Positions 21,048 through 24,526 of a stretch of 30,719 bases of DNA are shown piece after piece. The notes beneath the pieces were generated by a model that saw only the letters and a list, made by a program, of their open reading frames with translations, did not search any database and was not told the DNA's origin. The stretch comes from Opitutales bacterium (GTDB lineage Bacteria; Verrucomicrobiota; Verrucomicrobiia; Opitutales; JABDGR01). The stretch covers positions 1 to 30,719 of the forward strand of contig DATHOB010000272.1 in assembly GCA_035485355.1 (NCBI GenBank), read 5' to 3'. Position 1 is the stretch's first letter, and every line of letters starts with the position of its first letter. The position numbers and the translations under genes were made by a program.

Positions 21048-21713
21048 GTGGCGACGAAGTCTAAACTCAAAACACCACCAACCCCATCGGGATTGCGGGA
21101 GCATCTGTATCCGCATTTCGATAAAATGCTGCCGCGCGCCGATAAAGAGGCGCGATTGGGGCAGCGTGGGGTGGTGTGCTGGTTGTATGGGTTGTCGGGG
21201 TCGGGCAAAAGCACGCTGGTGTTGGGCTTGGAGCGCGAGTTGTTTGCCGCCGGGCGCGCGGTGCAGGTGCTGGATGGTGACAACATCCGCACGGGGCTGA
21301 ACCGCGATTTGGGCTTTAGCGAGGCCGAGCGGCGTGAAAACATCCGCCGCATTGCCGAGGTGGCCAAGTTGTTTGCCCAATCGGGCGTCATCGTGCTGGC
21401 GTCGTTCATCACGCCACGCGAAAGTTTGCGCGCACTCGCGCGGGAAATCATCGGCGCGGAAGATTTTTTGGGCGTGTATGTGAAGGCGTCGTTTGCCACC
21501 TGCGCGGCGCGCGACCCGAAGGGGTTGTATAAAAAAGCGCAGGCGGGCGCGGTAAAGCAATTCACCGGGCGCGACCAGGAATTTGAGGAACCGGTGGCAA
21601 ATTCAGAAGATTTGGTCTTGGACACGGAAAAGTTGGACTATCCCACCTCGCTCAAAAAACTGCAGACGGTTCTTCAAACACGTTATACGTCACGCACAAA
21701 AACTAAGAACTAA
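21048..21713 (+). CDS. cysC: Adenylyl-sulfate (APS) kinase
   Basis: WLYGLSGSGKST P-loop, LDGDNIRTGLNRDLGFS, RDPKGLYKKA; GTG start. Confidence 0.95.
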   Translation: MATKSKLKTPPTPSGLREHLYPHFDKMLPRADKEARLGQRGVVCWLYGLSGSGKSTLVLGLERELFAAGRAVQVLDGDNIRTGLNRDLGFSEAERRENIRRIAEVAKLFAQSGVIVLASFITPRESLRALAREIIGAEDFLGVYVKASFATCAARDPKGLYKKAQAGAVKQFTGRDQEFEEPVANSEDLVLDTEKLDYPTSLKKLQTVLQTRYTSRTKTKN

Positions 21714-21735
21714 GAACCAAGAACCAAGAACCAAG
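21701..21735 (+). repeat. Heptamer tandem array (AACYAAG)x5
   Basis: AACTAAG AACTAAG AACCAAG AACCAAG AACCAAG; contains the cysC stop and ends 20 nt before the cysD ATG. Confidence 0.9.
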
Positions 21736-21755
21736 CCCCCCAAAAACTTTTTCCC

Positions 21756-22661
21756 ATGCCCTCCTATCTCGTCAACCATCTTGCCCAGCTCGAAGCCGAG
21801 GCGATTTACGTACTGCGCGAAACCGCGGCGCAATTCCAGCGCCCGGTCCTGCTCTTTTCCGGCGGCAAGGATTCCATTGTGATGACGTGGCTCGCGCGCA
21901 AGGCGTTCTGGCCCGCGCGCATCCCGTTCCCACTCGTGCATATCGACACGGGGCACAACTTTCCGGAGACGATTACCTTTCGCGACGATTTTGTGAAGCT
22001 GATGGATGCGAAGCTCGAAGTGGGCCTCGTGGAGGACAGCATCCGGCAGGGCAAAGTCGTCGAGGAAAAAGGGCCGATGGCGAGCCGCAACAAATTGCAG
22101 ACGGTGACGTTGCTGGACAAACTGGCCGCGCTCGAGGCGGATGCCGCGCTGGGCGGCGGGCGGCGCGACGAGGAAAAGGCGCGCGCGAAAGAGCGGTTCT
22201 TCTCGCATCGCAATCATTTCGGCGAATGGGACCCCAAAAACCAGCGCCCGGAATTGTGGAACATTTTCAACGGTCGCAAACATTTCGGCGAACACTTCCG
22301 CGTGTTTCCGCTCTCGAACTGGACGGAGATGGACGTGTGGCAATACATCAAGCAGGAGAAAATTCCGCTGCCGGGTTTGTATTTCGCGCACAAGCGTCCC
22401 ATCCTCGAGCGCAGCGGCATGTTGATCGGGGTCACAGATTTTATCACCCTGCTGCCGGGCGAAAAGCCGGTGGAGCAAGTGGTGCGCTTCCGCACGGTCG
22501 GTGATGCCACCTGCACCGGCGCCGTCTCCTCTTCGGCCTCCACCTTGGACGAAATCATCGACGAAGTCGCCGCCGCCCGCGTCACGGAGCGCGGGGGCCG
22601 CGCCGACGACAAACGCTCCGAAACCGCGATGGAAGACCGAAAAAAAGAAGGATATTTTTAA
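21756..22661 (+). CDS. cysD: Sulfate adenylyltransferase subunit 2
   Basis: LLFSGGKDS PP-loop, GGGRRDEEKARAKER, WDPKNQRPELW, RVFPLSNWTE, MEDRKKEGYF. Confidence 0.97.
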   Translation: MPSYLVNHLAQLEAEAIYVLRETAAQFQRPVLLFSGGKDSIVMTWLARKAFWPARIPFPLVHIDTGHNFPETITFRDDFVKLMDAKLEVGLVEDSIRQGKVVEEKGPMASRNKLQTVTLLDKLAALEADAALGGGRRDEEKARAKERFFSHRNHFGEWDPKNQRPELWNIFNGRKHFGEHFRVFPLSNWTEMDVWQYIKQEKIPLPGLYFAHKRPILERSGMLIGVTDFITLLPGEKPVEQVVRFRTVGDATCTGAVSSSASTLDEIIDEVAAARVTERGGRADDKRSETAMEDRKKEGYF

Positions 22662-22698
22662 AGAGTGTTTTTGTGTCTTGGTGCATGGTGTTTTAGTG
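22660..22698. repeat. Left octamer array (TTTTAGTG-type) flanking the four-helix-bundle gene
   Basis: AAAGAGTG TTTTTGTG TCTTGGTG CATGGTG TTTTAGTG; imperfect reverse complement of 23218-23257. Confidence 0.85.
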
Positions 22699-22776
22699 CC
22701 ATGTCCAATTTCACGCTCCATTCCACGCACCTCCATTAAATTAACTCCATAACCCACCAAGGAATTTTGCTCTGCC

Positions 22777-23151
22777 GTGCTGATTAAAAAATTTGAGGAT
22801 ATTCGATCTTGGCAAATCTCGCGCGAGCTGGTGCGGGAGGTTTACTCCATTTCCAGCAAGGGCGCGCTGGCGAAGGATTTCGGGCTGAAAGACCAGATGC
22901 GGCGCGCTGCCGGCTCCATCATGCACAATATTGCCGAGGGTTTTGGGAGCGGCAGCCGTCCGGAATTCATTCGTTTTTTGCGCTATGCCCAACGCTCGGC
23001 TACCGAATTGATGAGCCAACTCTATATCGCCCTGGACCAAGCTTACATAACCCAAGACCAGTTCGAGCAATTACGCAAACTTGCCGAAGACGCCCACGCA
23101 ACCATTGGGGGATTCATCAAACACCTTCAGACAAAGAAACCCACAGGTTAA
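22777..23151 (+). CDS. Four-helix-bundle protein (23S rRNA IVS-encoded-like family)
   Basis: FEDIRSWQISREL, FGLKDQMRRAAGSIMHNIAEG, EFIRFLRYAQRSATELMSQL; 124 aa; GTG start. Confidence 0.93.
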   Translation: MLIKKFEDIRSWQISRELVREVYSISSKGALAKDFGLKDQMRRAAGSIMHNIAEGFGSGSRPEFIRFLRYAQRSATELMSQLYIALDQAYITQDQFEQLRKLAEDAHATIGGFIKHLQTKKPTG

Positions 23152-23217
23152 ACGCCAAGAGTATGCTTTTTCTTTCACGACACATCATTACAGGCACAAA
23201 AAAACCAGGTACCAATT

Positions 23218-23257
23218 CACTAAAACACTAATTCACCAAAACACTAAAACACTTTTC
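23218..23257. repeat. Right octamer array (CACTAAAA-type) flanking the four-helix-bundle gene
   Basis: CACTAAAA CACTAATT CACCAAAA CACTAAAA CACTTTTC; ends 3 nt before the cysN ATG. Confidence 0.88.
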
Positions 23258-23260
23258 ACT

Positions 23261-24526
23261 ATGAGCACTGGTTATCTGGGCATGGATTTACTTCGCTTTA
23301 CGACGGCGGGCAGCGTGGACGACGGCAAGAGCACGCTGATTGGGCGCTTGCTGTATGACAGCAAGAACATCTTCGAGGATCAGCTCGAGGCGGTCGAGCG
23401 CGCGTCCAAGCAACGCGGCACGGACTATGTGGACCTCGCGCTGTTGACCGACGGGCTGCGCGCCGAGCGCGAGCAGGGCATCACCATCGATGTGGCCTAT
23501 CGCTATTTCGCCACGCCGCGGCGCAAATTCATCATCGCCGACACCCCGGGGCACATCCAATACACGCGCAACATGGTCACGGGCGCCTCGACGGCGAACC
23601 TCGCCATCGTGCTGATTGACGCGCGCAAAGGGGTCATCGAGCAGACCTGCCGCCACGCGTTCATCGCCAATCTCCTGCGCATCCAGCACGTCGTTATTGC
23701 CGTGAATAAAATGGATTTGGTGGAATACAAGGAAGAGACGTTCAAGGAAATTTGCGCGGCGTTCAAGCAGTTCGCGTCGCGGCTCGACAATCTGGTCGAG
23801 ATGACGTTCATCCCCATCTCGGCGCTCAAGGGCGACAACGTGGTGGATAAATCCACCCACATGCCGTGGTATCAGGGGCCGACTTTGCTTTACCATTTGG
23901 AGACGGTGTATGTGCGGCCCGACGCCAACCATGTCGAGGCGCGTTTCCCCGTGCAGTATGTGATCCGCCCGCACATTGCGAAATACCACGATTTCCGCGG
24001 CTACGCCGGGCGCGTGGCCGGCGGGGTGTTCAAAACCGGGGACGACGTGGTCGCGCTGCCCTCGGGCTTCAAGACGAAGGTGACGGGCGTGCACACCATG
24101 GGCGGCGAATTGCCCGAGGCCTTTGCGCCATTGTCCGTCGCCATCACGCTGGCGGATGAAATCGACATCGGCCGCGGCGACATGCTGGTGAAGGAAAACA
24201 ACCCGCCGCAAATCGGCCAGGAGATCGAGGCTATGGTCTGCTGGTTCTCCGAGACGAAGCTGAAGCCGCAGGGCCGCTACGTGATACGCCACACCACGCG
24301 CGAGCTCCGCGCCATCGTGCGCGAGGTGCGCTACAAGGTGGACATCAACACGCTGCACAAAATCGAGGACAATTTGGAAATAGGGCTCAACGATATCGGG
24401 CGGCTGAGCCTGCGCACGTCCGGCCCGCTGTTTTTCGACAGCTACCAAAAGAACCGCACCACCGGCAGCTTCATCCTCATCGACGAGCAATCCAACGCGA
24501 CCGTCGCCGCGGGGATGATTATCTGA
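23261..24526 (+). CDS. cysN: Sulfate adenylyltransferase subunit 1 (GTPase)
   Basis: LLRFTTAGSVDDGKSTLIGRLL, AEREQGITIDVAYRYF, ADTPGH, NKMD. Start placed at ATG 23261; the track start at 23081 runs through the repeat arm. No fused CysC domain. Confidence 0.96.
   Translation: MSTGYLGMDLLRFTTAGSVDDGKSTLIGRLLYDSKNIFEDQLEAVERASKQRGTDYVDLALLTDGLRAEREQGITIDVAYRYFATPRRKFIIADTPGHIQYTRNMVTGASTANLAIVLIDARKGVIEQTCRHAFIANLLRIQHVVIAVNKMDLVEYKEETFKEICAAFKQFASRLDNLVEMTFIPISALKGDNVVDKSTHMPWYQGPTLLYHLETVYVRPDANHVEARFPVQYVIRPHIAKYHDFRGYAGRVAGGVFKTGDDVVALPSGFKTKVTGVHTMGGELPEAFAPLSVAITLADEIDIGRGDMLVKENNPPQIGQEIEAMVCWFSETKLKPQGRYVIRHTTRELRAIVREVRYKVDINTLHKIEDNLEIGLNDIGRLSLRTSGPLFFDSYQKNRTTGSFILIDEQSNATVAAGMII

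Follow-up and report, generated by a model that had tools for sequence, protein, structure and literature searches.

The gap between the sulfate-activation genes cysD and cysN of an Opitutales bacterium is filled by a small conserved gene of unknown function, which is bracketed by two complementary runs of 7-8-base repeats. The window analysed comprises 30,719 nucleotides (contig DATHOB010000272.1 of assembly GCA_035485355.1, positions 1 to 30,719 of the forward strand). The enclosed gene belongs to the PF05635 four-helix-bundle (4HB) family, and it is the only Pfam-recognised ORF between cysD and cysN. In order, the features of the locus are as follows.

21697-21735 (+): a solo array of about five AAGAACC-type heptamers, found by TRF, which runs from the end of cysC to 20 nt before the cysD ATG and has no inverted partner; its unit family is that of the arms of the 4HB copy on contig C125 of the same genome.
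21756-22661 (+): cysD, sulfate adenylyltransferase small subunit (PF01507; NF003587 CysD, E 3.6e-134); its TAA at 22659-22661 is the foot of the stem.
22660-22700 (+): the left arm, G/T-rich degenerate octamers of GTGTTTTN / GGTGCAT type, beginning inside the cysD stop codon.
22701-22776 (+): the 76-nt leader of the 4HB gene, with a weak AAGGA 12 nt before the GTG start.
22777-23151 (+): the 4HB gene, 124 aa, of the 23S-rRNA-IVS protein family, with the RxxxSxxxNxxE motif.
23189-23217 (+): an extra A/C-rich stretch that gives the left arm a second pairing register.
23218-23257 (+): the right arm, five CACTAAAA-type octamers with no G, which ends 4 nt before the cysN ATG and so makes up the Shine-Dalgarno-less leader of cysN.
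23261-24526 (+): cysN, sulfate adenylyltransferase large subunit, GTPase (PF00009 and PF22594; TIGR02034, E 2.8e-174), with its ATG at 23261-23263.

Assignment of the enclosed gene is supported by several lines of evidence. The protein matches PF05635 with 112.6 bits against a cut-off of 33.8 (E 1.3e-32) and TIGR02436 with 107.8 bits against a cut-off of 24 (E 3.2e-31). Its solved relatives are PDB 2GSC (E 1.6e-12) and 2RLD (E 5.4e-05). The RxxxSxxxNxxE motif is visible in the family alignment and is as described in PMC3936711. No transposase-like ORF lies in the segment, no rRNA or other Rfam family was found in the window, and a consensus scan of 21600-23400 identified neither a promoter nor a terminator.

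The complementarity of the arms was assessed in three ways. First, a search for inverted repeats paired 22661-22686 with 23231-23256 at 85% complementarity, and identified an 11/11 core with exactly 519 nt between the arms. The right side is longer than the left, as 23189-23229 offers a second register (37 nt, 81%). Second, both the minimum-free-energy and the centroid RNA folds of 22640-23280 close the long-range stem, pairing 22661-22698 with 23218-23256. Third, a duplex of the two arms alone gives -41.8 kcal/mol with 39 pairs, only 2 of which are G-U. Here, dinucleotide shuffles average -23.8 (sd 3.7; z = -4.8) and 0 of 500 reach the observed value. Collectively, the arms pair as a 34-39 bp stem of about -40 kcal/mol. 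GC content falls to 0.35-0.47 over the arms, against 0.6-0.7 in cysD and cysN. The initial annotation, which described a 4HB gene looped out by inverted octamer arrays that join the cysD stop to the cysN start, is therefore confirmed as an observation. The last paired base is 23256, 4 nt before the ATG, whereas in the earlier parsing of units the array ends 3 nt before it.

The arrangement is not confined to this locus. All 4 testable 4HB copies in this genome have inverted arrays that are specific to the locus, and the arms of the five copies present differ from one another. In contrast, only 4 of 1011 control small ORFs reach the same score, the best of which is a RAYT-type transposase with REP palindromes (C418:207-665). 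Relatives were collected with the single protein, as the alignment of five paralogs was too divergent for this purpose. Of 79 loci from Verrucomicrobiota, Planctomycetota, Desulfobacterota, Chloroflexota, Nitrospirota and others, 53 have arms (z > 3). These values come from local alignment scores checked against shuffles and mismatched loci, because duplex energies for whole 220-nt flanks were meaningless (a random pair scored -98). In the window's own family (f1), 27 of 44 copies have arms while 17 score below the threshold, and some have only one arm (G002_C131 and G004_C9b, where G numbers denote the genomes compared). Of 102 loci, 62 have both neighbours co-directional, with gaps of about 80 and 60 nt. 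That other family members might lack complementary arms had been named in advance as grounds for rejecting the initial proposal; instead, complementary arms that differ from locus to locus are a family-wide feature.

Comparison of the cysD-cysN junction between relatives, also suggested beforehand as a check, shows that the segment is a discrete insert. The junction is filled in G000, G001, G002 and G003, which are of the same genus, and in G008 and G009, from two sister genera. In congeners G005 and G006, the gap is 5 and 14 nt, respectively, and in congener G004 it contains a 71-nt gene-less hairpin. The cysD tree places the filled state in all three genera of family f1. The 4HB tree does not separate one old insertion from repeated insertions at this site (p-AU 0.048, post hoc, and 0.10). 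No direct repeat is evident at the filled-against-empty junction, and no movement, target duplication or enzyme was seen. Consequently, the features of an insertion sequence or MITE, namely shared terminal inverted repeats, a target-site duplication and a transposase, were not found. Details also vary between orthologs: those of G001, G003 and G008 lack the leader, so that the ATG follows the arm directly, and in G001 and G003 the right arm lies inside the tail of the 4HB ORF. Metagenome DNA contigs aligned to the locus only re-assemble the filled form and show a diverged relative without the insert.

The gene and its arms evolve differently. Synonymous sites between these genomes are saturated and the protein is under strong purifying selection, with dN/dS of 0.1 or less against orthologs. 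The arms differ in every genome, yet they are 85-100% complementary within each one and 35/35 in G002. In all 7 orthologous groups, own-locus pairing beats cross-genome pairing, so the arms evolve in concert. To separate a constraint on RNA from one on DNA, mismatches were counted across 81 armed loci. G·U-type mismatches number 123 (81+42) and A·C-type mismatches 126 (80+46), each about 4.7% of paired positions. This absence of bias towards wobble argues against selection on the sense-RNA stem as the only force. The test is indirect, however, as registers in degenerate arrays are ambiguous and many mismatches are unit variants rather than point changes.

The same unit families occur in this genome without the gene, in about 15 gene-less hairpins and about 60 solo arrays. 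The genome has 86 intergenic arrays and about 18 hairpins, 15 of which are gene-less with loops of 15-200 nt. These span whole intergenic gaps just as the cassette does. Hairpins have the G-rich arm on the 5' side in 19 of 19 cases, and in 25 of 27 in a second set. Solo arrays follow a rule tied to the direction of transcription: they are C-rich before starts in 24 cases against 9, and G-rich after stops in 19 against 8. A search of the gene-less loops for 4HB remnants produced only short low-complexity hits, but these loops are too short for that to count either way. The possibility that 7-8 nt periods place stop codons in all three frames to create a translation barrier was rejected, since 6% and 4% of arms do so against 3% and 2% after shuffling.

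We interpret the 600-bp segment as a hairpin-armed 4HB gene cassette, the operon-dwelling counterpart of the ORF-bearing intervening sequences of 23S rRNA, and give this reading a probability of roughly 0.5. What the analysis itself demonstrates is that the cassette occupies a junction of only 5-14 nt in some congeners, that it is old at this site and has been lost or replaced by a gene-less hairpin in some lineages (within the limits of the 4HB tree given above), that its protein is under strong purifying selection, and that its arms change sequence quickly but stay complementary within each genome. The remainder is inference. Complementarity would be kept mainly by a process that treats both DNA strands alike, such as arm-to-arm copying (gene conversion or template switching between the inverted arrays) or selection on a DNA palindrome, with array slippage renewing the repeat units. 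Arm-to-arm conversion across about 500 bp with arms of 35-40 bp is at the lower limit for homologous recombination, and the abundance of gene-less hairpins and solo arrays means that the arms may not belong to the gene. Once transcribed with cysDN, the arms would close a stem of about 38 bp that loops out the gene, puts the cysD stop codon at its foot and buries the G-free leader of cysN. The insert could then be tolerated in one of two ways: RNase III may cut the stem, as in the rRNA intervening sequences, or ribosomes terminating at the cysD stop may melt the foot of the stem and free the cysN start. The host has an RNase III gene, but there is no transcript evidence of any kind, as no RNA sequencing run was found to contain the locus. 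The role of the 4HB protein is not known, and binding of the roughly five-unit arrays as a pentamer is a guess.

The closest precedent is the ORF-bearing 23S rRNA intervening sequence of Leptospira and of Coxiella burnetii (S23p IVS; PMC4990558). There, a gene of the same family (PF05635) is enclosed by terminal inverted repeats that form a stem of about 28-40 bp, tandem heptamers lie in the 5' part, there is no transposase, and the element is inherited vertically and occasionally lost. In Coxiella, the stem is 28 bp and RNase III cuts it mid-stem. The cassette differs in that it lies in a protein-coding operon, not in helix 25 or 45 of 23S rRNA, and in that its arms are built wholly of degenerate 7-8 nt arrays that turn over between congeners; excision by RNase III, proven in the rRNA case, is untested here.

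Other systems share some of these parts. The intergenic heptamer repeats of Xanthomonas and Nostoc (Rehm et al. 2015, PMC4692102) are transcribed arrays of 7-nt units between co-directional genes, G-rich just after stops and C-rich (G-rich on the antisense strand) just before starts, and many form convergent inverted pairs (70-75 such pairs are described). The placement seen here agrees with that rule. However, that paper names no enclosed gene family and reads the arrays as G-quadruplex formers, whereas the units here are mostly not G-tract units and a 4HB gene sits in the loop. REP/BIME palindromes with RAYT transposases are likewise dispersed and intergenic, and a gene flanked by inverted palindromes is present in this genome (the RAYT-type control above), but REP copies share one sequence per genome and have a Y1 transposase, while the 4HB arms differ at every locus and the enclosed protein has no nuclease or transposase signature. 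The DGR accessory protein Avd has a homologous four-helix-bundle fold (PMC10053308, citing 4DWL against 2GSC). Avd is a pentamer, and both PDB relatives of the 4HB protein have five chains per entry. No reverse transcriptase or template/variable repeat pair lies next to the gene, as its immediate neighbours are cysC, cysD and cysN. Finally, 23S_rRNA_IVP genes with the same motif have been noted wedged between genes of cas operons, for example between cmr3 and cmr2 (Zhang et al. 2013, PMC3936711). That arrangement was read as a functional link with CRISPR-Cas, and flanking inverted arrays were not described. Full-text searches of the papers accessible to us, for the repeat units and for the gene-plus-arms design, found the parts described but not the whole.

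The main alternative is the one originally proposed, in which the arms are selected as a stem in the mRNA that is cut out by RNase III or controls cysD-cysN translational coupling, with complementarity kept by compensatory substitutions. This interpretation is partly supported. The discrete insertion, membership of the 23S-IVS family, the family-wide arms and the lack of a transposase all hold, while nothing here shows RNA processing, circular RNA or control of coupling. In addition, the arms had been treated as belonging to the element, yet they are part of a wider repeat system. In favor of an RNA-level constraint are the significant predicted stem, the position of the left arm in the stop codon and of the right arm as the cysN leader, the co-orientation of most family members with both neighbours, the RNase III of the host, cleavage of the homologous rRNA IVS stem and the direction rule of the solo arrays. 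Against it is the mismatch spectrum, since helices under RNA selection normally tolerate G·U far better. Further, perfect 24-35 bp arms built of mixed unit variants look like recent copying rather than piecemeal compensation, and in G001 and G003 ribosomes would open the right arm. On balance, we consider the RNA-first reading unlikely, though it is the strongest of the alternatives.

Less likely still, the arms are not part of the element. In this view, the genome, like many others, fills gene junctions with hairpins and arrays for its own reasons, and 4HB genes merely land in, or survive best inside, the loops. The gene-less hairpins and arrays, the solo array before cysD, the gene-less hairpin at cysD-cysN in G004 and the Xanthomonas and Nostoc arrays are all consistent with this. 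However, the frequency of arms at 4HB genes relative to controls and the persistence of the link across phyla speak against it, as does the paralogous copy at the trpB locus, whose arms are of a unit family (GTTCTTG/GTGCTTG) related to that at cysDN.

A more speculative and improbable reading, which the data do not rule out, is that the cassette is a new kind of self-maintaining genetic element without a transposase. The pentameric, Avd-like 4HB protein would recognise the roughly five-unit arrays as folded DNA or RNA, and would drive templated arm-to-arm copying and occasional duplication of gene plus arms into other stop/start junctions. Gene-less hairpins and solo arrays would then be its footprints or non-autonomous relatives.

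An inversion switch is very unlikely: although inverted repeats of 35-40 bp flanking about 500 bp could recombine, all 9 filled cysD-cysN loci have the gene in the orientation of cysD and cysN, no strand-changing joints were listed among the metagenome contigs, and no invertase gene lies nearby. Chance pairing of low-complexity A/T-rich spacers can be all but dismissed on the shuffles, the orthologous groups and the control ORFs, even though arms from different loci pair more than random sequence does because unit families recur (95th percentile of mismatched locus pairs = 42).

PF05635 is one of the largest bacterial protein families with no known function, and its copy count in this one genus runs from 1 to 11. 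Its only described context outside DGRs is the rRNA intervening sequence. The finding that the same gene-in-a-stem design sits inside ordinary operons across phyla, with arms that co-evolve although neutral sites are saturated, turns an rRNA curiosity into a general, testable class. The cysDN locus is a good test bed for this class, as filled, empty and gene-less-hairpin states exist within one genus, at a junction normally only 5 nt long. If the stem is processed or restores coupling, it shows how bacteria tolerate genes inserted into operons. If instead the constraint lies in the DNA, it points to an unrecognised mechanism that maintains palindromes, or to a new kind of mobile element.

The segment derives from a soil-metagenome genome of 2.7 Mb in 423 contigs (58% GC, 84% complete), whose nearest named relatives are Opitutales, Verrucomicrobiota. 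The genes cysC, cysD and cysN lie on the + strand, and 599 nt separate the cysD TAA from the cysN ATG. The features of the region are as follows.

21048-21713 (+), cysC.
21697-21735, solo array of about five AAGAACC-type heptamers, running from the last codons of cysC to 20 nt before cysD, with no inverted partner.
21756-22661 (+), cysD.
22660-22698, left arm, a G/T-rich run of degenerate octamers that begins inside the cysD stop codon.
22701-22776, leader between the left arm and the start of the four-helix-bundle (4HB) gene, with three spaced CTCCAT(T/A) motifs that may be the remains of another array.
22777-23151, 4HB gene, 124 aa.
23218-23257, right arm, a G-free run of five CACTAAAA-type octamers that ends 4 nt before the cysN ATG.
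23261-24526 (+), cysN.

The 4HB gene is the only recognisable gene in the gap and its product matches the PF05635 profile at 1.3e-32 and TIGR02436 at 3.2e-31. Its solved relatives are 2GSC and 2RLD, each of which was deposited with five chains. The two arms are complementary, and RNA folding closes them as a stem in both the MFE and the centroid structure. Here, the duplex of the arms has an energy of -41.8 kcal/mol with 39 pairs, a value reached by 0 of 500 dinucleotide shuffles. The initial annotation, made from sequence alone, was correct in what it observed: its coordinates, the 519-nt loop, the lower GC of the segment and the absence of a transposase all hold. Its interpretation of the segment as a candidate mRNA intervening-sequence element, in which the RNA stem preserves or controls translational coupling or is cleaved out, is partly supported, as explained below.

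A lack of complementary arms in other members of the family had been named among the conditions that would refute the interpretation. The arrangement proved to be a rule and not a one-off. The genome contains five PF05635 genes, each of which sits between the stop of one gene and the start of the next. Each of the four that can be tested is bracketed by inverted short-repeat arrays, with a different unit at each locus: GCGACTAAG on contig C214, GTTCTTG on C125, GGAATGC-type on C142 and AAGGAGCA upstream on C355, where the other side is lost at the contig end. As a control, 1011 other small ORFs of this genome were scored in the same way and only 4 reached the score. The strongest inverted flanks among these belong to an IS200/RAYT-type transposase gene flanked by REP-like palindromes (contig C418:207-665). 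In other genomes, 79 loci encoding relatives could be tested, of which 53 have flank complementarity at z > 3 and 45 at z > 5. These come from Verrucomicrobiota, Planctomycetota, Desulfobacterota, Chloroflexota, Nitrospirota, Lentisphaerota and Kiritimatiellota. In addition, both neighbours run in the same direction as the 4HB gene in 62 of 102 loci, and the gaps of about 80 and 60 nt leave room for little but the arms. One-armed cassettes also exist: two 4HB copies, one in genome G002 (contig C131) and one in G004 (C9b), have only a left array of GTTTCG units, and the next gene, which is hisF-like, starts 4-11 nt after the 4HB stop.

A comparison of empty sites at cysD-cysN in relatives had also been named beforehand as a check, and the junction was retrieved from 28 genomes of the order (designated by G numbers, with G000 being the genome analysed here). 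The family to which this genome belongs has three genera: g1 (its own), g2 and g3.

State of the cysD-cysN junction in relatives.
Cassette present, same genus (g1): G000 (own), G001, G002, G003.
Cassette present, sister genera: G008 (g3), G009 (g2).
Cassette with distant 4HB genes (40-46% identity): G017, G024, G012.
Gap of 5 nt, same genus: G005.
Gap of 14 nt, same genus: G006.
Gene-less hairpin of 71 nt, same genus: G004.
Gap of 55 nt with no gene (sister of the filled G009): G007.

The units of the G004 hairpin resemble the arms of another cassette in that genome, at the atp locus. Next to this hairpin, cysD of G004 (contig C7) matches in two overlapping pieces (residues 1-162 and 128-301), which could be a frameshift, a duplication or an assembly fault. 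In the cassettes of G001 and G003, the 4HB reading frame runs on through the right arm, which is translated as a Lys/Thr/Asn/Gln-rich tail, and in G003 the frame ends only inside the start of cysN. In the window and in G002, the gene stops 45-65 nt before the arm. Further evidence for sites without the insert came from the same soil sample, where a contig from a diverged relative, at higher depth (16.8 against 6.4), joins position 22659 in the cysD stop region directly to 23281 in early cysN. Carriers and non-carriers therefore co-occur.

On a cysD tree, the filled state occurs in all three genera of the family, the simplest reading of which is an old insertion followed by three or four losses. 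The 4HB proteins from this junction form one clade (95/85) that also contains the copies at the trpB locus (contig C125 of this genome and C108 of G001), whose arms use a related unit family, so that at least one duplication to a second junction happened. Repeated insertion at cysDN is not excluded by the 4HB tree, as p-AU is 0.048 (post hoc) for monophyly of the genus's own copies and 0.10 for all cysDN copies. Copy number in the family ranges from 1 to 11.

Between these genomes, synonymous sites of the 4HB gene are saturated (dS is 1.6 or more, or not computable), while dN/dS is 0.1 or less. The protein is therefore functional and any unconstrained sequence of 40 nt should have been randomised. 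The arm sequence does differ in every genome, yet the arms remain 85-100% complementary within each, and in G002 they are 35/35. In the group of cassettes at the moxR-DUF58 junction, the unit itself changes between congeners (GGAATGC, TGCTGAA, GTGTGGA and TAAAC-type) and both arms change together. Consistent with this concerted evolution, in all seven orthologous groups a left arm pairs better with its own right arm than with the right arm from the same locus in another genome.

To separate constraint on RNA from constraint on DNA, the mismatches between arms were examined. A transition in one arm gives a G·U-compatible pair in the sense transcript if it falls in the right arm and an A·C mismatch if it falls in the left arm, and selection on the sense RNA should spare the first kind.

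Paired positions and mismatches in armed loci.
54 armed loci: 1723 Watson-Crick pairs, 81 G·U type, 80 A·C type.
27 loci of the family: 806 Watson-Crick pairs, 42 G·U type, 46 A·C type.

The spectrum is the same for both strands, which argues against selection on the RNA stem as the only force. The test is indirect, because registers in degenerate arrays are ambiguous, but the result fits arm-to-arm copying or a constraint on the DNA palindrome. The 5' arm is G-rich in 19 of 19 hairpins of one set and in 25 of 27 of another. This property is the same when read from either strand, so it says nothing about gene orientation. It does match the placement rule of the solo arrays, which are C-rich on the sense strand before starts (24 against 9) and G-rich after stops (19 against 8), a rule that was published for heptamer arrays in Xanthomonas and Nostoc (PMC4692102). 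Start-codon triplets are three times rarer in right arms than in left arms.

The arms belong to a wider repeat system. The genome holds 86 intergenic arrays of period 6-10, drawn from a handful of unit families, and about 18 hairpins. Fifteen of these hairpins have loops of 15-200 nt and no gene, and they span whole intergenic gaps just as the cassette does. Several unit families that are gene-less here flank a 4HB gene in some congener. No 4HB remnants were found in the gene-less loops. The solo array before cysD has the same unit family as the arms of the 4HB copy on contig C125 and of cassettes in Pirellula and Verrucomicrobiales genomes. On contig C77 (1989-2825), a gene that looks like ribosomal protein L9 is bracketed by AT-rich inverted arrays with a 781-nt loop, and this would be a non-4HB gene inside a repeat hairpin.

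Parts of this arrangement have been published. These are a gene of the family inside a stem with heptamers in 23S rRNA (PMC4990558), heptamer arrays and inverted pairs between genes, with no gene family named (PMC4692102), genes of the family inside cas operons, with no arms noted (PMC3936711), and homology to Avd (PMC10053308). No paper describing the gene-plus-arms cassette in operons was found in the literature searched. What is added here is a genus with filled, empty and gene-less-hairpin states at one junction, the argument from saturated synonymous sites, the wobble-symmetry test and the wholesale turnover of repeat units at orthologous loci.

The analysis demonstrates the insert, its polymorphism, purifying selection on the protein, concerted evolution of the arms and a mismatch spectrum that is the same for both strands, whereas what follows on transcription and mechanism is inference. 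Membership of the segment in the class of armed cassettes is considered likely, with a probability of about 0.9. That a DNA-level process maintains complementarity is possible, though rated somewhat less likely than not, and the same holds for a processing or coupling role of the RNA stem, with which it is compatible. It is unlikely that the protein itself acts on the arms as a mobility or maintenance factor. As a consensus scan found no promoter or terminator, the segment is inferred to be co-transcribed with cysDN, and if so, a near-perfect stem of about 38 bp forms in the transcript. The host has RNase III, and this enzyme cuts the homologous Coxiella stem at mid-stem (PMC4990558). Alternatively, ribosomes stopping at the cysD TAA, which is the foot of the stem, would open it, thereby freeing the cysN leader, which has no Shine-Dalgarno sequence and no G in its last 45 nt. 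This would mimic the 5-nt coupling seen at empty sites.
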